From Chitinophagales bacterium (lineage in GTDB: Bacteria; Bacteroidota; Bacteroidia; Chitinophagales; LD1): 64,000 bases of DNA. Shown one piece after another: positions 6,364 through 64,000 of this stretch (the first letter of the stretch is position 1; the number at the start of each line of letters is the position of its first letter). The notes below the pieces were generated by a model that searched no databases, was not told where the DNA came from, and saw only the letters and a program-made list of their open reading frames with translations. The stretch covers positions 1,854,329-1,918,328 of the forward strand of contig JAXLUM010000001.1 in assembly GCA_046329515.1 (NCBI GenBank). Reading direction: 5' to 3'. Position numbers and translations under genes: made by a program.

Positions 6364-7422
6364 ATGGCAAAAAATTTACTAAAATCCGTTTTTGTAACTG
6401 TAGTTATGGCCTTGCTGGCTTTGCAGGGTATTGCACAGGATATTCACTTCTCGCAGTATTACGCATCGCCTATGCAGCTAAACCCTGCATTAGCGGGTAT
6501 GAACAATTGCGACTATCGTATTTACGCCAACTTTCGCACCCAGTGGGTTACGGTTTCAACCGGTAATACCTATAGAACCGTTGCAGGCGGCGCTGATATG
6601 AGCATCGGCAAAGTAACCAAGTATAACAGCTTTGCAGGTTTGGGCATCTCTTTCTTTAGCGACCAGGCGGGCGATCTTAACTTCAACACTAACCGAATAG
6701 ACCTTTCATTTGCTTACCACTTTATGCTAAACCGTAAAGGAACTATGCAGATTTCTACCGGTATACAGGGCGCGTTTAACTACAACAGCATCAATCCTTC
6801 TAAGGCAACCTTTGATTCGCAATACGACCCTACAACAGGTATTGCTGACCCTAACGGGCAAAAAGAAAGCTTTGCCAAAACGCGTGTAATGTTCGGCGAT
6901 GCAGGCTTTGGCCTTTTGTATAGCGCCATAGTTAAGCAGCAAACCAATTTCTTTTTAGGTTTTGCCCTTAACCACCTTAACCAGCCTAAAATGTCGTTTC
7001 AACCTAATGGAACAACCAATGACGGCAGCGGTTTTGAGCGTTTGTACATGAAGATTACAATACATGGTGGAGCATCTTTACCTGTAGGTAAGCGCTTAGC
7101 TATACAGCCGCACTTTTTGGCGTTGGTACAGGGGCCTTCTTACCAGTTTAACTTAGGCTGTAACTTTAAAACCACTTTAGGAAACGTTACTACCAGCAGA
7201 ACAGCCTTGCACCTTGGTGTGCAATACCGCGGCTTGCTTGATGCAGTTGTGTTAAGCACCCGTATTGATGTAAAAGGTTTTGGCGCCGGTTTAAGCTATG
7301 ACATTAACGTATCTAAACTGACACCGGCCTCTCATTCAGTAGGTGCGCCTGAAGTTTCTATTATGTATCAGGGATGCGCCCGCAAGAAGCCTCATCCGGG
7401 GCACTGCCCTGCTTTGTTCTAA
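6364..7422 (+). CDS. PorP/SprF family type IX secretion system outer-membrane protein
   Basis: The 352-aa product has a signal peptide and the hallmark N-terminal motif QDIHFSQYYASPMQLNPALAG. The gene starts 11 nt after the type-B cargo gene and is preceded by AAGGAGGA. Confidence 0.9.
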   Translation: MAKNLLKSVFVTVVMALLALQGIAQDIHFSQYYASPMQLNPALAGMNNCDYRIYANFRTQWVTVSTGNTYRTVAGGADMSIGKVTKYNSFAGLGISFFSDQAGDLNFNTNRIDLSFAYHFMLNRKGTMQISTGIQGAFNYNSINPSKATFDSQYDPTTGIADPNGQKESFAKTRVMFGDAGFGLLYSAIVKQQTNFFLGFALNHLNQPKMSFQPNGTTNDGSGFERLYMKITIHGGASLPVGKRLAIQPHFLALVQGPSYQFNLGCNFKTTLGNVTTSRTALHLGVQYRGLLDAVVLSTRIDVKGFGAGLSYDINVSKLTPASHSVGAPEVSIMYQGCARKKPHPGHCPALF

Positions 7423-47262: not shown

Positions 47263-48504
47263 ATGACCACAGCAACATCAGCAGGTATAAGCAGAGCAGA
47301 GCATTTAATGGAACTGGAAGAACAGCACGGTGCGCATAACTACCATCCGCTGCCGGTTGTATTAGAACGCGGCCGGGGCGTGTATGTATGGGATGTAGAC
47401 GGCAAACGCTATTTAGATTGCCTTAGCGCCTACAGCGCCGTTAACCAGGGGCATTGCCACCAACTGATTATTGATGTTTTAAAACGCCAGGCCGAAAAGC
47501 TGACCCTAACCAGCCGCGCCTTTCATAACAATGTATTGGGCGAATACGAAAAGTATATAACCGAATACTTTGGCTACGATAAGGTGTTACCTATGAACAC
47601 CGGCGTTGAAGCGGTTGAAACGGCTATTAAACTGGCGCGCCGTTGGGCTTACGAGGTTAAAGGCGTTAAGGAGAATGCAGCTAAGATAATTGTGCCTGAA
47701 GGTAACTTCCATGGGCGCACACTGTTGGCTATTTCTGCCAGCACCGACCCTGATAGCTATGCAGGCTTTGGACCCTATGTGCCCAACTTTGTAAAAATAC
47801 CTTATAACGACCTTACCGCTTTAGCCGAAGCTTTAACAGATAAAGACGTAGCAGGCTTTATGGTTGAGCCTATACAAGGCGAAGCCGGCGTTAATGTGCC
47901 TGATGATAACTACCTGGCAAAAGCAAAATTCCTTTGCGAAAAGGCCGGCGTGTTGTTTATAGCCGATGAAGTGCAAACAGGCCTTGGCCGCACCGGCAAA
48001 ATGCTGGCTTGCGATTGGGAGGAAGTGCGCCCCGATATTTTGATTTTAGGCAAAGCCCTTAGCGGTGGCACCCTACCGGTTAGCGCTGTATTGGCTGATG
48101 ACCCCATTATGCTAACCATTAAGCCCGGCGAACACGGCAGTACGTATGGCGGTAATCCGCTGGCGGCTAAAGTAGCTATGGCTGCGCTGCAGGTTATTAA
48201 GGATGAGAACCTGGTGTATAACGCCTTTTACCTTGGCAAGTACTTCCGCCAGGAATTGGGCAAGATTAAACACAAGAGCATAAAACAAATACGCGGTAAA
48301 GGTTTACTAAACGCTATTGTATTAGACACCACCGACGAAAAAGCCGGCTGGAACCTTTGCGTTAAAATGATGAAGAAAGGCCTGTTGGCTAAACCAACGC
48401 ACAGCTACATCATTCGCCTTGCACCGCCTTTATGTATAACTAAGGAACAGGTAGATGAAGCCATTGCTATCATTACCGACGCCTTTAAGGACTTTAAAGG
48501 ATAG
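47263..48504 (+). CDS. rocD: Ornithine--oxo-acid aminotransferase
   Basis: The 413-aa product begins [45 protein letters not shown]. It has a class-III PLP lysine region ([12 protein letters not shown]) and [14 protein letters not shown]. Confidence 0.9.
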
Positions 48505-48535
48505 CTATAATCACATAGTAAATAGAAAACATAAG

Positions 48536-48562
48536 AAGGACTTCGTTTGAGGTCCTTTTTTT
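48536..48562 (+). terminator. Rho-independent terminator of rocD
   Basis: The stem AAGGACTTC / GAGGTCCTT (9 bp, one G-U pair) has a GTTT loop and is followed by a T-run. Confidence 0.65.
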
Positions 48563-48563
48563 A

Positions 48564-48715
48564 CTACCCCCTCCGCCAAACTTCGTATGGCTCGTCCCCC
48601 TTTCCGGGGGACAATAACCTAACTTCTTAGTTAAGCGCATTACTGTATTTAAACTGTCCTCCTGGCAGGAGGACGAGGAGATTCCGATAACAATCGGGAT
48701 TGACGGAGGAGGTAT
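48564..48715 (+). repeat. Multi-hairpin interspersed repeat, copy A (full length, 152 nt)
   Basis: Copy A contains four hairpins: GCCAAAC-TTC-GTATGGC, GTCCCCC-TTTCC-GGGGGAC, GTCCTCCT-GGC-AGGAGGAC and ATTCCGAT-AACA-ATCGGGAT. The 5' ACCCCCTCCGCC can pair with the 3' GACGGAGGAGGT. Homologous copies lie at 53123 and 54198. Confidence 0.85.
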
Positions 48716-48885
48716 TGAGCACAGAATGATATTAAAGACACATTCCCATTCCGATTACTTAATACGGGGCCTGATATTCTGCATTAAGCCCCTTCTATCC
48801 TACCTTCACAAAAAATATTTAGCAATAGAAATAGCTCTCTACCAGCTAATTAACAGCAGCTATCCACAGCCCTGAATCTCGCCTC

Positions 48886-48916
48886 TTGCCTTAACTACTC
48901 TTTTTGATTATATTTG
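48886..48916 (+). promoter_or_regulatory. Candidate Bacteroidota sigma-A promoter for the first island ORF
   Basis: A TTG at 48886-48888 is followed by a 20-nt spacer and then TATATTTG at 48909-48916 (TAnnTTTG consensus), 25 nt before the ATG at 48941. Confidence 0.35.
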
Positions 48917-48940
48917 TACCATTAAGGTAATTTAAAGTAT

Positions 48941-49378
48941 ATGACTAAACAGGACATTTTAAAGGAAAAACCGCTGGACCCGGAGCTGCTGCGTCCGCAG
49001 TTTTGGCAAATGCTGGAGGATAGCGAAATAGATGAGGCCTTTCAAAAACTGGATGAGCTGACTATGGAACTGGCCCTCCGCCTGCAACGCATGGAGCAAA
49101 CCGACCTGTTTAAACTAACCAACCAACAGGCGCTTGACACCATACGCCAAATGGAGCGCCAGCGCTTTGTGGTAGAAACCCTGTTTAACGCGCGTGAATT
49201 CGCCATGCAGCTTATTGATGCCCGCAAACAGAACCGTCTGCTGCAACTGCAATTAACAGAACGCAACTTTCAACTGCAATGCACCAATGATGCCCTAATA
49301 CAAACCCACGAAAGCCTTGAGTTTACTACGGAGCTGTGTGAGAAATATATGGACCAGTTGGCTAGTGGTAAAGGGTAA
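48941..49378 (+). CDS. Hypothetical coiled-coil protein
   Basis: The 145-aa product is rich in Leu/Gln/Glu/Arg heptad-like stretches (LQRMEQTDLFKL...RKQNRLLQLQLTERNFQLQ). I recognised no catalytic motif. Confidence 0.6.
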   Translation: MTKQDILKEKPLDPELLRPQFWQMLEDSEIDEAFQKLDELTMELALRLQRMEQTDLFKLTNQQALDTIRQMERQRFVVETLFNAREFAMQLIDARKQNRLLQLQLTERNFQLQCTNDALIQTHESLEFTTELCEKYMDQLASGKG

Positions 49379-49510
49379 ATGGCAAGCGGTGAACGGTAAA
49401 TAGCAAGTGGTGAATACAAACTCTTACTTCATACTTCTCAATTCTAACTTCTCAATTCTAAACTCTCACTTCAAACTTCTTATTTCTCACTTCATACTTC
49501 AAACTTTTCA
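49360..49510 (+). repeat. Iteron-like direct-repeat cluster immediately upstream of the ATPase gene
   Basis: A 21-bp unit is repeated in tandem: GGTAAATGGCAAGCGGTGAAC at 49374-49394 and GGTAAATAGCAAGTGGTGAAT at 49395-49415, with a partial copy just upstream. A perfect 14-nt tandem CTTCTCAATTCTAA occurs twice (49434-49461). At least four ACTTCAWACTTC-type words lie between 49426 and 49506. Confidence 0.8.
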
Positions 49511-49513
49511 CTA

Positions 49514-50530
49514 ATGGAAGACAAACTCCGCCAAATGATTGACCGCTTAAATACTGACCGCGGCGAGAAACTATTACTAATGAAACCCGCTGCACAATGG
49601 ATGCTGGAGGCCAGCCGCACGCCGGACCCTAAACTGCTGTTCAGCACCTTTTGGCGCGAGGGCGAACTGGCTATATTGTTTGCTGATACCAACGTGGGCA
49701 AAAGCATACTGGCCGTGCAAATTGCCGATGCCATAAGCCGTGGCCAGGGCGATGAACTGTGCCGCGTGGCCGTGCCTGCCCAAAAGGTATTGTATATGGA
49801 CTTTGAACTTAGCGCCAAGCAATTTCAAAAGCGCTATTGTAATGAGGCGGGGCGCATGTATAACTTCAGCGATAACTTTATACGCGTTGAGCTTAACCGC
49901 CACATGAAGCTGCTTACTGATTTTGACGGCGCCCTGTGGGCCGGAATTGAACGCGCCATTACCGAAAGCGGCGCACGTGTGCTTATAGTTGATAACCTTA
50001 CCGCCCTAAAACTGCAAAGCACCGAAGCCGCCAAGGAGGCCATACCGCTAATGAATAACCTGCTGCAACTTAAACACAAACTGGGCCTTAGCATATTGGT
50101 GGTGGCGCACACGCCCAAGCGCAACCGCAGCAACCCCATTACCGAAAACGACCTTGCCGGCAGCAAACTTATAAGCAACCTGGCCGATACCCTTTTTGCC
50201 ATTGGCCACAGCGCCATGGGCAGCGACATGCGCTACCTTATACACGTAAAGGACCGCAGCGGCAACAAACAGTTTGGGTACGACAATGTAATTAGCTGCC
50301 GCGTAGTAAAAACCGATGCACAACTCTGCTTTATGCCGCAGGGTTACGGCCCCGAAAAGGACCACCTTAGCCCACCCGAAACCGGCGATAGCCGCGCACA
50401 ACTGGATAGCGATATTGTGGATTTGTATAACAGCAACCCCAACCTAAGCAACCGCGAAATTGCCCGGCAGTTGAATACAAACCCTATGAAGGTAACAAGG
50501 GTATTGCAACGCGAAAAGCTGCTTGATTAA
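49514..50530 (+). CDS. RecA-fold (AAA_25/RepA-like) ATPase with a C-terminal helix-turn-helix
   Basis: The 338-aa product has Walker A FADTNVGKS (nt 49685-49705) and Walker B ARVLIVDNLTAL, followed by SILVVAHTPK. The C-terminal NLSNREIARQLNTNPMKVTRVLQRE looks like an HTH. The gene is GC-rich relative to its neighbours. Confidence 0.8.
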   Translation: MEDKLRQMIDRLNTDRGEKLLLMKPAAQWMLEASRTPDPKLLFSTFWREGELAILFADTNVGKSILAVQIADAISRGQGDELCRVAVPAQKVLYMDFELSAKQFQKRYCNEAGRMYNFSDNFIRVELNRHMKLLTDFDGALWAGIERAITESGARVLIVDNLTALKLQSTEAAKEAIPLMNNLLQLKHKLGLSILVVAHTPKRNRSNPITENDLAGSKLISNLADTLFAIGHSAMGSDMRYLIHVKDRSGNKQFGYDNVISCRVVKTDAQLCFMPQGYGPEKDHLSPPETGDSRAQLDSDIVDLYNSNPNLSNREIARQLNTNPMKVTRVLQREKLLD

Positions 50531-50582
50531 GTGTAACACTGTAACAGTTGTAACACGCATAACAGCCGTTACACTGTTACAT
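50531..50582. repeat. Palindromic element, copy 1 (abuts the ATPase stop codon)
   Basis: The sequence is GTGTAACAC-TGTAACAGTTGTAAC-ACGCATAACAGCC-GTTACACTGTTACA-T, homologous to 52958-52999. Confidence 0.85.
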
Positions 50583-50691
50583 CCCTTCCGTCATTCAGTT
50601 TCTACTTTCCAAAAAAAATCTTTCGTGAACTGATGAAAAGCTTGGTTCGTGCAATTACCTATTGTACCTTAGGCATACAAAACCCCTAACT

Positions 50692-50907
50692 ATGAAAAGC
50701 AATTGTCAAAACCATGAATTTAATTTTTGGGCCAACTTATGTTTAGGCATTTACTACTTTGCTGAATACAATGATATAAGTGCTAAACGCAAAATAGACC
50801 CAATCAAAAAAATAGCTGCTAAAAATGAAGCTGCTGAAAAGTCCATAGACTTTACTCTAAAATCGCTTGGTGCTCTTATAGATTACCACAACTGTAGACG
50901 CGGATAA
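50692..50907 (+). CDS. Hypothetical small protein (71 aa from the ATG)
   Basis: The sequence is MKSNCQNHEFNFWANLCLGIYYFAEYNDISAKRKIDPIKKIAAKNEAAEKSIDFTLKSLGALIDYHNCRRG. The track start at 50662 is TTG. The ORF is AT-rich and I recognised no family; coding status is uncertain. Confidence 0.35.
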   Translation: MKSNCQNHEFNFWANLCLGIYYFAEYNDISAKRKIDPIKKIAAKNEAAEKSIDFTLKSLGALIDYHNCRRG

Positions 50908-51087
50908 TTACCCCTCGCTGCTTTGCATTTTGTCCTGAAGGTGGGCTACCATCTTTAGATATTCCTCTTTTTCCTTAGGTGGCATGGCATCCAGTTTCCT
51001 TTTGGCTTCTGCCAAAGCCTCAGGCGAAAAAAAACGCTTGAGCGCTTTTTGATGTAACGCTTCTAATTCTTCTTTGCTGCGTTCCAT
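50908..51087 (-). CDS. Hypothetical small helical protein (59 aa; below the ORF-track threshold)
   Basis: My own translation is MERSKEELEALHQKALKRFFSPEALAEAKRKLDAMPPKEKEEYLKMVAHLQDKMQSSEG. It is divergent from the methyltransferase gene. Its stop abuts the stop of the 50692 ORF (TAATTA at 50905-50910). Confidence 0.4.
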   Translation of the reverse strand: MERSKEELEALHQKALKRFFSPEALAEAKRKLDAMPPKEKEEYLKMVAHLQDKMQSSEG

Positions 51088-51223
51088 ATACTAAAGTGGA
51101 TATTAACATAAAGCAATTAGTATAAAAGTAAACAGAAATGTTTACTTCTATAATCAAATTGACTTCTTTTAAGTCGGATTGACTTATTGTAATTATGTAC
51201 CAATAGTGCCTAATACAGAGTTT

Positions 51224-51294
51224 GTCAGTCTGAGCTTGTCGAAGACGACAATCGTATTGCGCAGTTAAGCACCCTTCGACAGGCTCAGGGTGAC
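51224..51294. repeat. Inverted-repeat (MITE/REP-like) element of the GTCACCCTGAGCCTGTCGAAGGG family
   Basis: The 21-nt arms GTCAGTCTGAGCTTGTCGAAG and CTTCGACAGGCTCAGGGTGAC have 1 mismatch and 2 G-T pairs, with a 29-nt loop. The element ends 31 nt upstream of the methyltransferase ATG. The spurious ORF 51020-51334 reads HPEPVEGC through it. Confidence 0.8.
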
Positions 51295-51325
51295 AGAGCG
51301 CTATATTATAAAATGGTAATAACCC

Positions 51326-52957
51326 ATGAACCACCTGTACTTTGGCGATAGCCTTGATATACTAAAGGAACTGCATGCCCAGCACCCCGAAGGCTTTATT
51401 GACCTAATATATATTGACCCGCCTTTTAACAGCAAGCGCAATTACAATGTGTTGTTTGAAACCGTAGATATACATGATGCCAAGGCACAGAAAGAAGCCT
51501 TTGCCGATACCTGGAGCAACGTAAGTTATTTTGATACCATAAGTGAGTTAAAGGCTTCAGAATTACATCTCACTAATTTGTTAGAAGGATTACAAGCTGC
51601 TGGTATTAGTAAAAGCGCGATTAGCTATTTATCGACTATGGCTATACGTATTTTTTATATACACAAAGTATTAAAGTCTACAGGCAGTTTCTACTTGCAT
51701 TGCGACACCACCATGAGCCACTATCTTAAAATAATCTGTGATATCATTTTTGGTGTTAAGAATTTCAGAAACGATATTATCTGGAAAAGAAGTGATGCAA
51801 AAGGTGATATCAGTCAAGGCGCTAAGCACCTGGGTAGAAATACAGATAACATTCTTTTTTACACAAAATCCGATGACGCCTATATCACCCAGTTGTACAC
51901 TCCTATGACCGAAGATTACATTGATAGATTTTATAGGCACATTGAAGAAGGAACTGGCAGAAGGTATAAGCTCGATAATATGCTCGGCCCAGGTGGCGCA
52001 GCAAAAGGCAATCCATATTACGAAGTGATGGGAATAAAGAGATATTGGCGTTACAGTAAGGAAAAAATGGCTGAGCTTATTAAAGCGGGTCGCGTAATTC
52101 AGACTAACCCAGGTACAGTACCCATGTATAAAAGATATTTGGACGAATCAAAAGGTGTGCCTTTAGGTAATTTATGGATTGACATAGACCTTGTACGCGG
52201 TCATTCTAAAGAAAAGCTAGGATATCCAACACAAAAGCCTGTAGCCTTGTTAGAAAGGATTATTCAAATAAGCAGTAAACCCGGTGATTTGGTTGCTGAC
52301 TTCTTTTGCGGTTGCGGTACTACCATAGCTGCTGCCCAAAAGCTAAACCGTAAATGGATAGGCGTTGATATTAGCCACTTAGCCGTAGGCTTAATACGCA
52401 AGCGCTTAATTGATAACTATGGCGAAGAGATAAACAAGACCTTTGATATAAAAGGCTTACCTAAGGATGTTGCCAGTGCACACATGCTGGCCGAGCAGCC
52501 GCAGGGCCGTATGCGTTTTCAGGATTGGGTTATTGAAACCCTTATTGGCGGCGTAACCAACGAAAAGAAAGTGGGCGATGGCGGTTATGATGGCTACACT
52601 ACGTTAGAAGTAGAGAAGGGTAAAAAAGAGATAGTATATATTGAAGTTAAAAGCGGTAACATAAACGTTAGCACCCTGCGCAGCTTTGCTAAAACCGTGC
52701 AACAGCAAAAAGGCAGTGCCGGTATATTAGTTTGTTTTAAAGAACAAATTACCAAGGGCATGTTAAACGAAGCCAAGGGCGAGGGTTACTTCCGCGAAGA
52801 TTTATTCGGCAACCGCTTCGATAAAATACAGATAATAAGTGTAGAAGATTTACTGGATGGTAAAATGCCTGAACTGCCCCGCAGTACCGAAACAGGCCCA
52901 TTCAAAAAAGCCGAGAAAGCCGAAAAGAAAGGCAAAAGCAAGGGATTGTTTGATTAG
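51326..52957 (+). CDS. Beta-class (N6-adenine/N4-cytosine type, DPPF) DNA methyltransferase fused to a C-terminal PD-(D/E)XK Mrr-like restriction-endonuclease domain
   Basis: In the 543-aa product, motif IV IYIDPPF (nt 51416-51427) lies N-terminal to the AdoMet motif I DFFCGCGTT (nt 52298-52321), which is the beta permutation. QKP lies before motif I. The C-terminal VGDGGYDGY...IVYIEVKSG (D418/D422, E440-V-K442) fits the Mrr_cat-type D...(D/E)xK signature. Confidence 0.85.
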   Translation: MNHLYFGDSLDILKELHAQHPEGFIDLIYIDPPFNSKRNYNVLFETVDIHDAKAQKEAFADTWSNVSYFDTISELKASELHLTNLLEGLQAAGISKSAISYLSTMAIRIFYIHKVLKSTGSFYLHCDTTMSHYLKIICDIIFGVKNFRNDIIWKRSDAKGDISQGAKHLGRNTDNILFYTKSDDAYITQLYTPMTEDYIDRFYRHIEEGTGRRYKLDNMLGPGGAAKGNPYYEVMGIKRYWRYSKEKMAELIKAGRVIQTNPGTVPMYKRYLDESKGVPLGNLWIDIDLVRGHSKEKLGYPTQKPVALLERIIQISSKPGDLVADFFCGCGTTIAAAQKLNRKWIGVDISHLAVGLIRKRLIDNYGEEINKTFDIKGLPKDVASAHMLAEQPQGRMRFQDWVIETLIGGVTNEKKVGDGGYDGYTTLEVEKGKKEIVYIEVKSGNINVSTLRSFAKTVQQQKGSAGILVCFKEQITKGMLNEAKGEGYFREDLFGNRFDKIQIISVEDLLDGKMPELPRSTETGPFKKAEKAEKKGKSKGLFD

Positions 52958-52999
52958 TGTAACAGTGTAACACCCATAACAGCCGTTACACTGTTACAT
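52958..52999. repeat. Palindromic element, copy 2 (abuts the methyltransferase stop codon)
   Basis: The 14-bp arms TGTAACAGTGTAAC and GTTACACTGTTACA are perfect, with a 13-nt loop ACCCATAACAGCC. Confidence 0.9.
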
Positions 53000-53122
53000 T
53001 AAAGTCAACTACCGTATATTTATCGTCCTTGCAATTCTAAGGACCGGTGAAGAACCCATGCCTTAGTTCAATGTAGGGTGCGCCTTTCTGCAAAGAGAGG
53101 CGTTTTATCTTTCGCCCTATTC

Positions 53123-53225
53123 AATAACCCAGCTTCTTAATTAAGCGCTACACTGTATTTAAACTGTCCTCCTACACAGGAGGACGAGGAAATCCCGATA
53201 ACAATCGGGATTGACGGAGGAGGTA
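53123..53225 (+). repeat. Multi-hairpin interspersed repeat, copy B (3' 103 nt only)
   Basis: Copy B aligns with 48613-48715 of copy A with about 12-13 differences by eye. It retains the hairpins GTCCTCCT-ACAC-AGGAGGAC and ATCCCGAT-AACA-ATCGGGAT. Confidence 0.85.
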
Positions 53226-53259
53226 GTGCATTTTACCTGCCTACTTATATATTCGCCGC

Positions 53260-53907
53260 ATGAAAACAGCTAAATATCCTGCGTTAATAGTACTCGCTCT
53301 TTCGGTAAGCGCCATGCTACTGCTAAATGCCTGCAAAAAGGAAAGCCTGCCGAATTGGGATGTTCCTAAAATTAAAACCTGGACCTACAGTTTATTGCAA
53401 ACCGGTGTGCATGTTACCATGCACTACACCTACGATACTGATGGCCGCGTAACGGAGGAACTCTCTACCAATGACGCTTCCTCAACAACCTATACTAATA
53501 CGTTTACTTATAGCAATAACTATGTTTTGGTTAGCTACCATGGCACCTCGCCTGATACTATTTGGTTGAATGCCGATGGATTGAATACAGCCTTTACGTT
53601 TAATGCAGATGGCTATAGAACGGCAGGTAATAGCGGCGAAACGTATGAGTGGGTGGATGGCAATACGGCAACGGCTTACGGCAATACCGGTGATACTACC
53701 CATTTTACCTACGCTACGGATAAGCAGAATACCATAGGCTATTACAATAAGGGTATCTATACCATGGGCAAAGACTCAAAAAATCCTGTTCTTACGGCTA
53801 CCAGCTCAAGCGGGGCTATTTACAACTATACCTACACCTACGACCAACAAGGCCGTATTGCAAGCGTAACAAGCGCTACCGATACCAGTTATTATACGTA
53901 TTACTAA
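53260..53907 (+). CDS. Hypothetical lipoprotein
   Basis: The 215-aa product has a signal peptide with a lipobox-like LLNAC. It is Thr/Tyr/Asn-rich with repeated TYTY motifs. I recognised no family. Confidence 0.7.
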   Translation: MKTAKYPALIVLALSVSAMLLLNACKKESLPNWDVPKIKTWTYSLLQTGVHVTMHYTYDTDGRVTEELSTNDASSTTYTNTFTYSNNYVLVSYHGTSPDTIWLNADGLNTAFTFNADGYRTAGNSGETYEWVDGNTATAYGNTGDTTHFTYATDKQNTIGYYNKGIYTMGKDSKNPVLTATSSSGAIYNYTYTYDQQGRIASVTSATDTSYYTYY

Positions 53908-53974
53908 GCTGCAATTTACCTGCGCCAGTTGAGTTCGAATTGACGGGATTGATTCAGCATCTCGTTTAACTGAG

Positions 53975-54182
53975 ATTCCGTGTCGCAGCACGGAATGACG
54001 GGACTGGTTGTATTTTTTCCCCTCCTTGGCTAAGGAGGGGCAGAAACAGACTCCGCTTGCGGAGGATGGTTCGGGGTGGTTTGATATTACTACCACCTCT
54101 ACTTTGAAAACGCTCCGCATTTTTAAATTCTTCTCCTACTTAAAAAGGAGGAGAATCTAAACACAAGCACGGAATGACGGGA
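53975..54182. repeat. Cluster of short GC-rich hairpin repeats
   Basis: ATTCCGTG-TCGCAG-CACGGAAT lies at 53975-53996 and CCCCTCCTT-GGCT-AAGGAGGGG at 54019-54040. TTCTCCT...AGGAGGAGAA follows, and the word CACGGAATGACGGGA occurs twice (53989-54003 and 54168-54182). Confidence 0.75.
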
Positions 54183-54197
54183 ATGTGTTTTTGCATA

Positions 54198-54363
54198 CTA
54201 CCCCCTCCGCCATACTTCGTATGGCTCGTCCCCCTGTCCCGAAGTATCGGGAGGGGGACAATAACCTAACTTCTTAGTTAAGCGCAGTACTGTATTTAAA
54301 CTGTCCTACTACACAGGAGGACGAGGAAATCACGATTGCAATCGGGATTGACGGAGGAGGTAT
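54198..54363 (+). repeat. Multi-hairpin interspersed repeat, copy C (full length, 166 nt, with an extra nested hairpin)
   Basis: Copy C has the same architecture as copy A, plus an inserted TCCCGAAGTATCGGGA hairpin inside the GTCCCCC/GGGGGAC stem-loop. Confidence 0.85.
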
Positions 54364-54467
54364 TTAATTCCTCCCTCTGCCTCACTGCGTTCGGCTTCTC
54401 CCTCCAAAGGGAGACAGGTTTGCCCTCCGCGATGGAGATGGTTTTACTAACCCCGCCTCCCAACTAC

Positions 54468-55676
54468 TTACATTTTCCCGAAGCGTTTTAATGCGGTATG
54501 GTTGGTGGCAGTGGTAAGCTTTATAAGGTAACTACCGGCAGCTAAGGGGCTTACATCAATGGTAGCTGTAGCCTGGGGCGTTAACACCAATTGACCATTC
54601 AGGTTAAACACTTCTACTTTGATAATAGCTTCGTTACAGGTAATGTTTAGGTAATTGCCTGCGGGGTTGGGGTAAAGTTGCAGGCTTGCTTCGTTCAAAT
54701 AAGTAACTGCTGAAGGCTGGATAACTATGTTAGGTGTGCCATGGCGAACTACCAAACCATTAGCGCCTACGGCCCAACCAAGGGTATCATTCAAAAAGAA
54801 CAGGGCATTAGGCGTAGCCGTATGTAGGGTATCCATAGTCCATGTTGTGCCGCCATTAGTCGTTTTGCGCAGGGGTTGGTCGTTACCGAAAGAAGAAGAA
54901 ACTACCGCCCAACCGTTTTGGCTATCAGTAAAGTGAACATCGTGCTTACCGGCATTAGTGCCCGAGGCTTTGTCCGTCCATGTGCTGCCGTTAGCTGTAA
55001 TTTTAAACGCGGAAGGATTGCCACCTGCCCAGCCTTCCGTTTCTGAAAGCATTTGCAGGCATATAAGATTTAAGGTGGAAACTGAACCTGCAGCTACCTG
55101 TTCGGTCCAGCTTGCGCCGGCATCATCAGTATATACTACCAGCCCGCGGCTGCCTACTGCCCAGCCTCTGGTGCCGCTTAAAAAGTGCATGGCATAAATG
55201 CCTTTGCTTGGTGCAGCTACGGTTTGCCAGCTTGCGCCACCGTTGGTAGTGCGCTTTACAATACCCGGCACTCCGTTACTGCCTGCTATGTAGCCGGTAT
55301 CAGGCGTTACAAAAAATACATCTTCATAGTTAATCTGGTTGCCGCTATCAATGGCCAGCCAGGTATTGCCGCCATCATCAGTAGTAAGTATGCTTTGCTT
55401 GCCTCCCACTACCCAACCCTTAGTGGGGCTTGTAAAAAACACTGAGGTAAAACCCGTGCTTGTAACCGGCGAGGTTTGCGCTGCCCAGTTTGTTCCGCCA
55501 TCGTTTGTAGTTAGTATTGTGCCCTGTTGGCCAACAGCCCAACCTTTGCTTTCGTTAATAAAAAACACATCGGTTAGTTCTTTGGTAGTGCCGCTGTTTA
55601 GGGGCGTCCATTCCTGTGCGTTAGCTATAAAACATAAAAAGAGGGAAAGGGTAAATAGTGTAAGTTTTGCTTGCAT
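54468..55676 (-). CDS. T9SS type-A cargo: BNR/Asp-box (Ycf48-like) beta-propeller plus C-terminal sorting domain
   Basis: The 402-aa product has a signal peptide and Asp-boxes (TNDGGTNW, TDDGGNTW, TTNGGASW, TDDAGASW, TTNGGTTW). The C-terminus LQLYPNPAGNYLNI...AGSYLIKL fits the type-A CTD. Confidence 0.85.
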   Translation of the reverse strand: MQAKLTLFTLSLFLCFIANAQEWTPLNSGTTKELTDVFFINESKGWAVGQQGTILTTNDGGTNWAAQTSPVTSTGFTSVFFTSPTKGWVVGGKQSILTTDDGGNTWLAIDSGNQINYEDVFFVTPDTGYIAGSNGVPGIVKRTTNGGASWQTVAAPSKGIYAMHFLSGTRGWAVGSRGLVVYTDDAGASWTEQVAAGSVSTLNLICLQMLSETEGWAGGNPSAFKITANGSTWTDKASGTNAGKHDVHFTDSQNGWAVVSSSFGNDQPLRKTTNGGTTWTMDTLHTATPNALFFLNDTLGWAVGANGLVVRHGTPNIVIQPSAVTYLNEASLQLYPNPAGNYLNITCNEAIIKVEVFNLNGQLVLTPQATATIDVSPLAAGSYLIKLTTATNHTALKRFGKM

Positions 55677-61572: not shown

Positions 61573-64000
61573 TTAGTTTAAGCTTGCTATGCTCTTCTCC
61601 AAAATTTCAATCTTCTGAAGAGCGTCATCGCGTTTCTTCTTTTCGTTTTCCAATACCTGTGCAGGCGCTGATGATACAAAGCGTTCATTGGCCAGCTTTT
61701 TCTCTACGGATGCTAAAAAGCCTTTGGCATACTCTAACTCTTTGCTCAGCTTTTCCTTTTCATCTGCAGCATTCGCCTGTTCGCCGGTAACAATAAAGAA
61801 CTTATAGCCTTTAGCTACCAGGTTTTTAGCACCTGCAACATCTGCAGTAACAGCTTCCAGTTTACTCAAGCGAGCCAGTTTGCTTATTTTAGAAGCAAAC
61901 GCATCAAAGGAAACAGCATCACTACCGCTGTAGAAAGCATCTACCGTTTCGGTATTCTTCTTGTTGGCTTTAGCGCGTATTTCGCGTATGCCGGTAATCA
62001 ATTCAAAACTGAAAGCAGCTTCAGCAATCAATTTCTCATTAACAGCGGCTGCTTTAGGATATTCAGCTATGCAAATGCTTTCGCCATCCTTACGGTCCTT
62101 CAGGTTATGCCATATCTCTTCTGTAATAAACGGCATTACAGGATGCAACAAGCGCAGCAGCTTATCAAATAGCTCTACTGTTTTGTTGTATGTGTAGCTA
62201 TCTATCGGCTTCTGATAATCGGGTTTTACCAATTCAAGGTACCAGCTACAGAAGTCATCCCATACTAGTTTGTAAAGTGTCATCAATGCTTCACTCAGGC
62301 GGTATTCTTTGTATGAAGCTTCCAACTCAACAATGGTTTGGTTCAGCTTGCTTTCCATCCATTCAATAGCCACTTTGTTCTCGGCGTTTTCACCATCCTG
62401 TACCTCCCACCCTTTTACCAGGCGTAAGGCATTCCAAAGTTTATTGCTGAAGTTACGGCCCTGTTCACACAGCTTCTCATCAAACAGAATATCGTTACCT
62501 GCAGGGCTGCACAGCAGCATACCTAAACGAACACCATCTGCTCCGTATTTCTCAATCAGTTCTAATGGGTCAGGACTGTTGCCCAAACTCTTGCTCATTT
62601 TGCGGCGCAGCTTATCGCGCACAATTCCGGTGTAGTAAACGTTTTTAAATGGCTTATCTCCTTTCCATTCGTAACCTGCCATTATCATACGCATAACCCA
62701 GAAGAACATAATCTCCGGTGCGGTAACCAGGTCATTTGTTGGATAGTAATACTGTATGTCCTTATTGTTCGGGTCTTTAAACCCATCAAATACTGATATA
62801 GGCCACAACCAACTGCTGAACCAGGTATCTACCACATCTTCATCCTGCTTTAACTGGCTAGTGGTAAGTGGCAAGTGGTTAGCAGTGGCTTGCGCTATGG
62901 CTTCTTCTCTAGTTTTCGCCACAGCAACTAGATTGCCTTTCTCATCGTACCAAGCAGGTATGCGCTGGCCCCACCACAACTGGCGACTTATGCACCAATC
63001 GCGTATGTTATCAATCCAGTGCTTGTATGTATTCTTTAGGTTGGCAGGGTAAAAGCGTACTTCATCGCTCATTACATCTTCCAACACCTGCGGGTTCTTT
63101 TGCATGAAAGCCTTCATGTTTACAAACCACTGCATACTTAAACGCGGTTCAACTACAGCATTTGTACGTTCGCTTCGGCCAACCTTGTTTACTATCTCTT
63201 CCGTTTTAATCAGCAGGCCCTCTTCAGTCAATTTCTCAATGGCCTTTTTGCGCGCAGCAAAGCGGTCTAAGCCTACGAATATCTGTGCGGCCTCTGATAC
63301 AGTTCCATCCTCATTAAAGCAGTCAATAATCGGCAGATTGAATTTCTTACCAATCTCGTAGTCATTAGCATCATGCGCAGGGGTAATCTTCAATGCCCCT
63401 GTACCAAATTCAATGTCTACATAGTTATCGGCAATAACAGGTACCTCGCGGTTAACCATAGGCACAATAACCGTTTTGCCAATCAGGTGCTTGTAACGCT
63501 CATCATTAGGGTTAACACAAACGGCCACATCGCCCATAATAGTTTCCGGGCGAACAGTAGCTACCGCTAAAAATTCGTTAGTGCCCTTTAGCATATACTT
63601 TACAAAGTATAGTTGGCTCTTTACCTCTTCGTGGTTTACCTCTTCATTGCTAAGGGTAGTTTTCGCCTGGGGGTCCCAGTTAATCATGCGCAAGCCGCGG
63701 TAGATAAGCCCCTTATTGTAAAGGTCAATAAACACATCTAACACCGCCTCGCTTAAATCGGGCTCCATAGTAAAACGGGTGCGCTGCCAATCGCAACTGG
63801 CGCCCAGTTTCTTTAGTTGCTCCAGTATTATGCCGCCGTACTTTTCTTTCCATTCCCAGGCATACTTCATAAACTCATCGCGGCTCAGGTCGCTTTTCTT
63901 AATACCACGCTCGCGCAGCATGCCTACCACTTTGGCTTCGGTAGCTATACTGGCATGGTCAGTACCAGGTACCCAGCAGGCATTTTTGCCTTCCATACGC
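61573..64000 (-). CDS. valS: Valine--tRNA ligase, C-terminal roughly 800 aa (5' end beyond the right window edge)
   Basis: The reading frame is open to the window end. The KMSKS motif (RKMSKSLGN), the editing/CP1 region and the C-terminal coiled coil typical of ValRS are present. Confidence 0.95.
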   Translation of the reverse strand, partial: RMEGKNACWVPGTDHASIATEAKVVGMLRERGIKKSDLSRDEFMKYAWEWKEKYGGIILEQLKKLGASCDWQRTRFTMEPDLSEAVLDVFIDLYNKGLIYRGLRMINWDPQAKTTLSNEEVNHEEVKSQLYFVKYMLKGTNEFLAVATVRPETIMGDVAVCVNPNDERYKHLIGKTVIVPMVNREVPVIADNYVDIEFGTGALKITPAHDANDYEIGKKFNLPIIDCFNEDGTVSEAAQIFVGLDRFAARKKAIEKLTEEGLLIKTEEIVNKVGRSERTNAVVEPRLSMQWFVNMKAFMQKNPQVLEDVMSDEVRFYPANLKNTYKHWIDNIRDWCISRQLWWGQRIPAWYDEKGNLVAVAKTREEAIAQATANHLPLTTSQLKQDEDVVDTWFSSWLWPISVFDGFKDPNNKDIQYYYPTNDLVTAPEIMFFWVMRMIMAGYEWKGDKPFKNVYYTGIVRDKLRRKMSKSLGNSPDPLELIEKYGADGVRLGMLLCSPAGNDILFDEKLCEQGRNFSNKLWNALRLVKGWEVQDGENAENKVAIEWMESKLNQTIVELEASYKEYRLSEALMTLYKLVWDDFCSWYLELVKPDYQKPIDSYTYNKTVELFDKLLRLLHPVMPFITEEIWHNLKDRKDGESICIAEYPKAAAVNEKLIAEAAFSFELITGIREIRAKANKKNTETVDAFYSGSDAVSFDAFASKISKLARLSKLEAVTADVAGAKNLVAKGYKFFIVTGEQANAADEKEKLSKELEYAKGFLASVEKKLANERFVSSAPAQVLENEKKKRDDALQKIEILEKSIASLN

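Follow-up and report, generated by a model that had tools for sequence, protein, structure and literature searches.

A predicted mobile-element ATPase that ends in a helix-turn-helix (HTH) is encoded at 49514-50530 (plus strand) of a 64,000-nucleotide (nt) stretch of Chitinophagales bacterium DNA (assembly GCA_046329515.1, contig JAXLUM010000001.1, positions 1,854,329 to 1,918,328 of the forward strand; this whole stretch is called the window below), and short repeats stand at both ends of its gene; which of these repeats, if either, are the sites that the HTH reads? An initial annotation of the window had proposed that the dense repeats directly upstream of the ATPase start codon are iterons or an operator, and it did not mention the TGTAACA repeats that directly follow the gene. 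On balance we favor the view, drawn from sequence comparison and from analogy, that the downstream array together with a helicase of the self-loading type forms a replication origin, and that the upstream block of heptanucleotides (heptads) is a generic spacer made by slippage and not a set of HTH sites.

The ATPase and the repeats just 3′ of its gene

The 338-amino acid (aa) product of the gene was classified as an AAA_25 RecA-fold helicase-like ATPase by Pfam, PHROG, profile and AlphaFold comparisons as follows: Pfam AAA_25 covers residues 32-204 (E=8e-24; 84.8 bits versus a cut-off of 27, above gathering), the PHROG 'DNA primase/helicase' family matches at E=1.9e-17, a profile of 30 homologs finds the T7 gp4 helicase domain in the PDB (E=5e-4), and the AlphaFold model (pLDDT 86) matches T7 gp4 (E=1.2e-12), DnaB (1.8e-12) and also KaiC and RadA, all at about 1e-12. 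The fold comparison with the DnaB, KaiC and RadA families that the initial annotation had called for therefore returned all three and T7 gp4 besides. The Walker A (DTNVGKS) and Walker B (VLIVDNL) motifs and the C-terminal HTH that it had read from the translation are likewise present; the HTH occupies residues ~291-333 with the recognition helix TNPMKVTRVL, it matches HTH_24 slightly under gathering (E=1.8e-4), and in the AlphaFold model this end of the protein is a three-helix bundle with a weak match to HTH regulators. Residues T59, N60, G62, K63, S64, D160, N161 and A198-H-T-P-K202 are invariant across the 30 homologs, and the last group is, we presume from the precedent of RepA, the third conserved motif (H-x-x-K type after strand 4).

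An 'AAA family ATPase' from a Chitinophagales metagenome-assembled genome has the identical sequence, more than 4000 homologs are found at E<=1e-5, and NCBIfam has no family for the protein. In a typical relative (L034; related loci are given L numbers here), which is an integrated element, the gene order is HTH_17, tyrosine integrase, HTH_17, ATPase-HTH and then a Zn_ribbon_16/DUF6371 gene, and other relatives are fused to a BT4734-like archaeo-eukaryotic primase (AEP) with PriCT_1 or to a DnaG-type zinc finger. Sequence and model together support assignment of the protein as a predicted RecA-fold helicase of the RepA/DnaB type with a C-terminal HTH, of the kind found on integrative elements, much as had been supposed at the outset. 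A role as a defence-system protein was considered and rejected, as defence-system models give the ATPase a marginal mad8 match only.

Two nt after the ATPase stop codon begins the TGTAACA repeat array (50532-50581, plus strand), a candidate origin or helicase-loading site. It contains direct copies at 50532, 50540 and 50549 (TGTAACA) and at 50558 (CATAACA), followed by inverted copies at 50567 (CGTTACA) and 50575 (TGTTACA), so that four direct and then two inverted hexamers are spaced at 8-9 bp. Is such an array a regular companion of this gene family? Our survey comprised 80 genomic loci and 8 further contigs, with a strict array test applied to 84 loci and a looser one to 88. Array copies were counted as exact hexamers; a mismatch-tolerant count was dropped because TGTAAC and TGTTAC are one base apart and the two orientations are then confounded. 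Arrays with at least two direct and then at least two inverted exact hexamers between -10 and +110 of the stop were found in 58/84 loci, versus 0/84 among upstream 120-nt controls and 0/84 among shuffles, and a 5-mer criterion finds an array in 76/88 loci. The general layout after the stop is two to five hexamers at 8-10 bp spacing and then two to four inverted ones, and the spacing is 9 bp in 165 of the 207 intervals. In 33 of the 58 loci the first hexamer begins 5 nt before the end of the stop codon (CTG TAA CA), which places the stop codon inside the first repeat.

The array is thus common, but is it what the HTH reads? The hexamer covaries with three recognition-helix residues, and at least seven specificity classes can be distinguished, among them the following: helices xMK or xVK are paired with GTAACA; HKR, HKK and HRR with GGGACA; HTR, HVR, HMR and AVR with GGAACA; HFK with GGCACA; VGT with TGAACA; and EGT with GTACGA. 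The pairing of basic residues with G-rich hexamers is chemically sensible, and the covariation shows the TGTAACA repeats to be the predicted cognate sites of the HTH. Two specificities stand in a single, unusually long array at L018 (~6955-7065), where two GTAACA sites come first, eight GGGACA sites at exact 9-bp phase come next and three TGTCCCA sites come last.

Might the downstream palindrome instead be a terminator or other RNA hairpin, or an operator through which the ATPase-HTH controls the next gene, and not an origin? We regard this as doubtful, though it deserves real weight. As RNA the palindromic array also folds into a strong hairpin (z = -4.2). Its position is intergenic, downstream of the ATPase gene and, in full elements, 10-60 nt short of the start of the next gene, and it has no AT-rich center of the kind found in the origins of staphylococcal pathogenicity islands (SaPIs). 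A terminator, however, requires neither that hexamers recur inside it at a fixed phase of 9 bp nor that they covary with a recognition helix, and the inter-hexamer spacers of some arrays (e.g., L003, by inspection of the sequence) are not complementary. The array moreover keeps to the ATPase 3′ end whatever gene comes next, opposite-strand genes included, which with the non-complementary spacers points to recognition of double-stranded DNA by a protein; and that protein is helicase-like and has relatives fused to primases.

By analogy with SaPI Rep and its origin and with viral initiator helicases, 50532-50581 is most likely the origin of a self-loading helicase. The ATPase would be the replicative helicase and initiator, of the self-loading type, in a large family of replication proteins of Bacteroidota integrative elements; its HTH would read the TGTAACA hexamers just 3′ of its own gene, and the half-sites, being opposed, would load the origin with helicase rings that face in opposite directions.

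The heptad block between the two genes

The dense direct repeats that had been noticed directly upstream of the ATPase gene are there, at 49359-49512, and exceed what chance would give. Tandem Repeats Finder, which reports just three small tandem arrays of 2.0-2.4 copies each in the rest of the window, resolves the block into two adjacent arrays. Array 1 (49359-49414, no strand assigned) has a period of 21, 2.7 copies and 82% matches, and is the 21-bp tandem that had been described as beginning in the stop region of the upstream open reading frame (ORF), the final 20 nt of which, stop codon included, it overlaps. Array 2 (49417-49512, plus strand) has periods of 7, 14 and 21 with 6.9 copies of 14 nt, and it holds the perfect 14-nt tandem reported to occur twice, CTTCTCAATTCTAA at 49434-49447 and again at 49448-49461. 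The word ACTTCWMACTTC (with at most one mismatch) has 9 matches in the 64 kb, 8 of them inside the block, versus an expected 0.69.

Both arrays are built on a unit of 7 nt, and the whole 154 nt becomes a string of heptads when written in register. Array 2 consists of about 14 forward heptads of the type CnnACTT, and its last base is 1 nt before the ATPase ATG. Array 1 consists of about 8 heptads of the type TGGYRAR with the 21-nt super-period TGGCAAG CGGTGAA CGGTAAA; read on the minus strand these are nnnACCn, the same heptad family as array 2 in reverse. Four heptads of the array 1 family (TGGCTAG TGGTAAG TGGCAAG TGGTTAG) also occur at 62851-62882, with a 13-nt exact match to 49359-49371, inside a large minus-strand ORF (61573-63996) that, judged from its translation, resembles a valyl-tRNA synthetase gene.

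The top strand of array 2 is 71% pyrimidine, in agreement with the strand asymmetry first described, and 49413-49515 is a 103-nt top-strand run without G, the longest in the window (the next is 51 nt; the frequency of G is 0.217). Without G this run contains no ATG, GTG or TTG and can form no G-C or G-U pairs, and the RNA fold of 49417-49545 has a minimum free energy of -2.8 kcal/mol and a fully unpaired centroid. Two other roles for the tract were tried and rejected. The first, a hairpin formed in the RNA by the two arrays and controlling the ATPase start, is rejected at z = +0.95 for 49340-49530. A leader peptide could be imagined in the 35-codon GTG ORF at 49407-49514, which runs through array 2 and ends in TAATG over the ATPase start; this ORF is probably due to chance, as survival of such a frame in a G-free tract has P ~0.2 and it has no counterpart in relatives (TAA-rich heptads close all frames in L001, L084 and L205).

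Where does transcription of this region begin? A sigma-70 promoter and terminator scan was uninformative for Bacteroidota. The Bacteroidota -7 promoter consensus is TAnnTTTG, and TATATTTG at 48909-48916 (plus strand) matches it; this is the sole -7-type motif within 900 nt upstream of the ATPase start, and no -7 box was found between the small upstream ORF and the ATPase gene, that is, in the heptad block. In all of the window, L001, L084 and L205 this motif stands 29-60 nt ahead of the small ORF, and the promoter region is conserved between the window and L001. The 48909 motif is therefore likely the promoter of a two-gene operon, and with a -7 box before the small ORF and none between the genes, the heptad block is a transcribed intercistronic spacer. 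The first gene of the pair (48941-49378, plus strand) encodes a helical protein of 145 aa, a conserved upstream partner of the ATPase, that matches no family in Pfam, PHROG or NCBIfam and no ribbon-helix-helix (RHH) or HTH family. By tblastn it is connected to L001 only, whose upstream ORF has 58% identity to it; ORFs of similar size (140-155 aa) with the visibly common motifs FW and DLF lie upstream in L002, L003, L082, L083 and L084, and in several relatives the small ORF overlaps or abuts the ATPase start.

Does the ATPase's own HTH, as first suggested, bind the 21-, 14- and 7-nt repeats as iterons or as an autoregulatory operator? They do directly adjoin the gene at a density far above chance, the 21-nt super-period equals two helical turns, and heptads occur in both orientations. 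Heptad arrays, however, lie upstream in only about 9 of the 88 related loci and are missing from about 79, and the block contains no promoter motif for an operator to control. Those that do occur belong to four ATPase lineages that are ~50% identical, {window, L001}, {L074, L016}, {L072} and {L081, L084, L205}, and within these the heptads do not follow the recognition helix. The window and L001 (85% identical) have the same helix and the same TGTAACA array and yet have different heptads (CnnACTT versus AnnACYT), whereas L001 and L084/L205 have AnnACYT heptads in common and helices that pair with different hexamers. By these sequence comparisons, recognition helix and heptads are doubly dissociated.

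The heptad words are also generic. A metagenome scan for ACTTCNN in four copies gave at least 120 loci, and none of the matches listed holds an ATPase homolog; a viral scan for ACYTNNN in five copies gave at least 120 loci as well, with one marginal ATPase match (E=5e-4, 23% identity) among the matches listed. The initial annotation had itself named words that are common elsewhere and unconnected with this ATPase family as grounds for giving up its proposal, and that is what the metagenome matches look like. We consider binding of the upstream block by the ATPase's HTH highly improbable. Origin-like repeats do stand beside the ATPase gene, but they are those of the TGTAACA array on its 3′ side and not those of the upstream block.

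Some other small protein, either the product of the 145-aa ORF or a host factor, could in principle use the heptads as a DNA-level platform in the manner of the omega repressor. Contiguous 7-bp units in both orientations would suit such a protein, the window, L001, L084 and L205 have the core nnnACYT in common, and the small ORF is a constant neighbor. We nevertheless find this explanation improbable, as the heptads are degenerate and turn over fast, the small-ORF family is equally present in loci without heptads and has no RHH or HTH family match, and no promoter overlaps the array. The fixed strand polarity relative to the gene and the lack of G on one strand also point to a constraint that acts on RNA or on one strand.

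How, then, did the block arise, and is it of any use? Much about it looks like slippage. Heptad number varies among close relatives (ATPases 71-77% identical) from ~4 in L081 to ~10 in L205 and ~15 in L084. When the window is compared with L001, blastn cannot align the heptad tract, the flanks of which have 69-84% identity. Since tandem heptads are in addition a generic repeat class (PMC4679880), the block could be a functionless minisatellite that arose by replication slippage and was kept because it is harmless. We think it somewhat unlikely that this is the whole explanation, although as a neutral account of the heptads it is a serious competitor. Against it, four lineages that have diverged by ~50% carry the array in the same place. 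The 103-nt G-free run is moreover about twice as long as any other in the window, and in the window, L001, L084 and L205 alike the 80-110 nt next to the ATG lack G, as compared to 21 of 120 (17.5%) generic ACTTCNN arrays among the matches listed.

Our preferred reading is that slippage made the block and that selection then filtered it. A fifth lineage has no arrays, and in it an upstream ORF of 140-147 aa, in an RteC-HTH_17 context, overlaps or abuts the ATPase start (gap -17 to +2 nt). The heptads would have expanded between two genes that overlap or abut in such related elements, and would be transcribed from the single promoter at 48909. The G-free 103 nt next to the ATG would offer no base-pairing of note and no spurious start, such that ribosomes could reach an open ATG without Shine-Dalgarno pairing, and an array made by slippage would in this way have turned into an open, passive leader in place of the ancestral coupling of stop and start. 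The tract is probably tolerated and useful as a passive unstructured leader. At L074 (4143-5931) a ~76-nt leader of the form CCAAGCCAAAGGCCAACAGC...TAAATGATAACTG...ATG, ending in heptads, occurs five times in 1.8 kb, and its copies precede different ORFs, the small ORF and the ATPase among them.

The 4.4-kb island and the weight of the evidence

The two genes and the array lie in a 4.4-kb island that is bounded by copies of a repeat of ~110-160 nt with three hairpins. Copy 1 (48573-48717, plus strand) is the left boundary and a candidate att-like site, copy 2 (53122-53228, plus strand) is the right end of the island, and copy 3 (54207-54365, plus strand) closes a second segment of ~1 kb that contains a 215-aa ORF with a signal peptide. 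The three copies lie within 6 kb and are 88-94% identical over ~107 nt, and there are none elsewhere in the 64 kb; they could be att-like sites left by tandem accretion, or a structured RNA element. No Rfam family was found in 48400-51500 or 53000-54500 at E<=1 except for weak chance-level matches; a weak match to whalefall-1 (27.4 bits versus a gathering value of 37, E=1.3e-4) lies on the minus strand at 54368-54417, just past copy 3. No tRNA was found in 40-64 kb that could provide a tRNA-based att site. The expectation of an element without an integrase was borne out insofar as the integrase, primase-like gene and HTH_17 of L034 have no homologs in the window; the repeat boundaries are present all the same. 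The island is probably an integrase-less, non-autonomous remnant or rider of an integrative element.

Besides the small ORF, the ATPase gene and the array, the island contains a cargo gene (51326-52957, plus strand) for a 543-aa fusion of an N6_N4_Mtase methyltransferase to a C-terminal NA-iREase1/Mrr_cat restriction-endonuclease-like domain. Directly after its stop codon is a second copy of the array (52958-52998, plus strand; TGTAACA twice, CATAACA, CGTTACA and TGTTACA) that matches 50549-50582 at 97% identity. The TTGATT found before the ATPase stop is repeated in front of this copy as well, and array copies thereby flank a 2.4-kb cargo segment. Extra array copies were found only in the window, L072, L036 and L016. 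Just upstream of the methyltransferase gene, at 51223-51295, is an inverted repeat with 22-nt arms (TGTCAGTCTGAGCTTGTCGAAG / CTTCGACAGGCTCAGGGTGACA). It is similar to GTCACCCTGAGCGGAGTCGAAGGGCG elements that recur in L074 and L016, and it probably belongs to the dispersed elements of the type of repetitive extragenic palindromes (REP) or miniature inverted-repeat transposable elements (MITE). The cargo of other heptad-bearing loci is likewise variable and defence-like: L084 has a KAP NTPase and L074 a DUF4062 protein, as compared to the methyltransferase in the window. The small-ORF/ATPase module adjoins the same CNNM/CBS/CorC gene in both the L084 and L205 genomes, and is followed by the KAP NTPase in the former and by three unknown ORFs in the latter.

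Several observations weigh against the combination of a downstream origin and an upstream leader. The SaPI origins have a central AT-rich tract, and here the half-sets abut, 2-12 bp apart; the hairpin that the palindrome forms as RNA may mean that it acts as a terminator too or instead; and an island with no primase or integrase but with two array copies is odd for an origin. On the upstream side, array 1 is G-rich and in reverse orientation, and a role as RNA leader leaves it unexplained, while the G-free state of the tract suggests selection but rests on two or three independent lineages, and neutral slippage competes seriously for the heptads, as described above.

A more ambitious version of the same reading can be formulated, and we would not expect it to hold: the small ORF, the helicase-HTH and the palindromic array would be the core of a minimal replicating cassette that has no integrase and is bracketed by the ~110-160-nt repeats, captures defence-type cargo beside or between array copies, is excised in trans and is amplified from its own origin, and the G-free heptads would be a purpose-built reinitiation or standby leader without start codons. 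If true, this would give a function to heptamer arrays that have long been unexplained. Apart from this, the locus corrects an attractive but wrong assignment, in that its conspicuous repeats are, by these comparisons, not the binding sites. The covariation amounts to a recognition code that can be tested directly, one hexamer for two or three helix residues, in a family of Bacteroidota mobile-element helicases that is very large and unannotated; sequence alone now suffices to find the likely origins of these elements.

Comparison with known systems

In the initiator proteins SV40 large T and papillomavirus E1 the initiator is itself the helicase, and opposed penta- or hexanucleotide sites seat two rings. 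These are, however, unrelated helicases of superfamily 3 (SF3), and their origin-binding domain is N-terminal to the motor. A closer parallel is found in the SaPI Rep origins, where a C-terminal winged helix (WH) reads 6-12 penta- or hexanucleotide iterons that lie directly downstream of rep in opposed sets (PMC9371898). The present system shares with SaPI Rep/PriRep and its ori (PMC9371898), as far as sequence tells, a C-terminal WH or HTH and opposed sets of hexanucleotide iterons just 3′ of the ORF, and in both cases a primase is adjacent or fused (here in relatives) and the elements are integrated. It differs in that the motor is RecA-fold and AAA_25/DnaB/gp4-like (SF4 type) and not SF3 or MCM, the half-sets abut without a central AT-rich tract, the first site often contains the stop codon, and the hosts are Bacteroidota. 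By analogy the ATPase would work like SaPI Rep, yet it is not a member of that class.

RSF1010 RepA has no DNA-binding tail and relies on a separate iteron-binding protein, RepC, whereas the ATPase studied here carries its own C-terminal HTH. The fold is the same, the AAA_25 match is above the Pfam threshold, and fusions to BT4734-like primases are found here as they are among the primase-helicase-WH fusions of mobile genetic elements (PMC5862659). A C-terminal WH that follows RepA/DnaB-type helicases of mobile elements was previously predicted to recognize origins (PMC5862659), and in the literature searched nothing specific was found on an origin or cognate sites of the Bacteroidota ATPase-HTH family. 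As for the island as a whole, it resembles an integrative element (an integrative and mobilizable element, IME, or similar to a cis-mobilizable element, CIME) in its flanking direct repeats and differs in that no integrase or relaxase of its own was found in the window.

The omega repressor of pSM19035 coats contiguous 7-bp heptads, direct and inverted, that serve as operator and centromere. The upstream block is like these sites in having contiguous 7-bp units, direct and inverted, before a plasmid-type gene, and unlike them in having no conserved heptad, no RHH match in neighboring ORFs, no overlapping promoter and a fixed strand polarity. Comparable heptamer repeats are the short tandemly repeated repetitive (STRR) sequences of cyanobacteria. 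The best match is to the heptamer direct repeats (TAACTGA and others) described by MacGregor (PMC4679880) from Beggiatoaceae, Cyanobacteria and five Bacteroidetes, which are intergenic, forward and a few nt from start codons; the spacers of close relatives are shorter and contain no repeats, RNA structure is not predicted, reverse sets occasionally occur right after a stop, and heptamers other than TAACTGA are also present in the Bacteroidetes arrays (PMC4679880). Our arrays agree with these in their tandem 7-nt intergenic units, forward toward the start codon with a reverse set at the stop, and in L001, L084, L205, L072, L074 and L016 as in the window the forward heptads end within a few nt of the start codon; they differ in that the units are degenerate (CnnACTT / AnnACYT, not TAACTGA) and the ATG-proximal tract is wholly G-free, and near variants of TAACTGA (TAACTGT, TAAATGA) were found only in L074 and L016. 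Translation in Bacteroidetes depends on low structure for its initiation, with no reliance on pairing to a Shine-Dalgarno sequence (PMC6847099, PMC3155529), and unstructured tracts can act as ribosome standby sites (PMC5934652). The helicase and its array would then be a further self-loading initiator-helicase, and the heptad block a representative of a known but unexplained repeat class, to whose heptanucleotide arrays before start codons these loci add well-defined new cases in which the tract is G-free and takes the place of a stop-start overlap.

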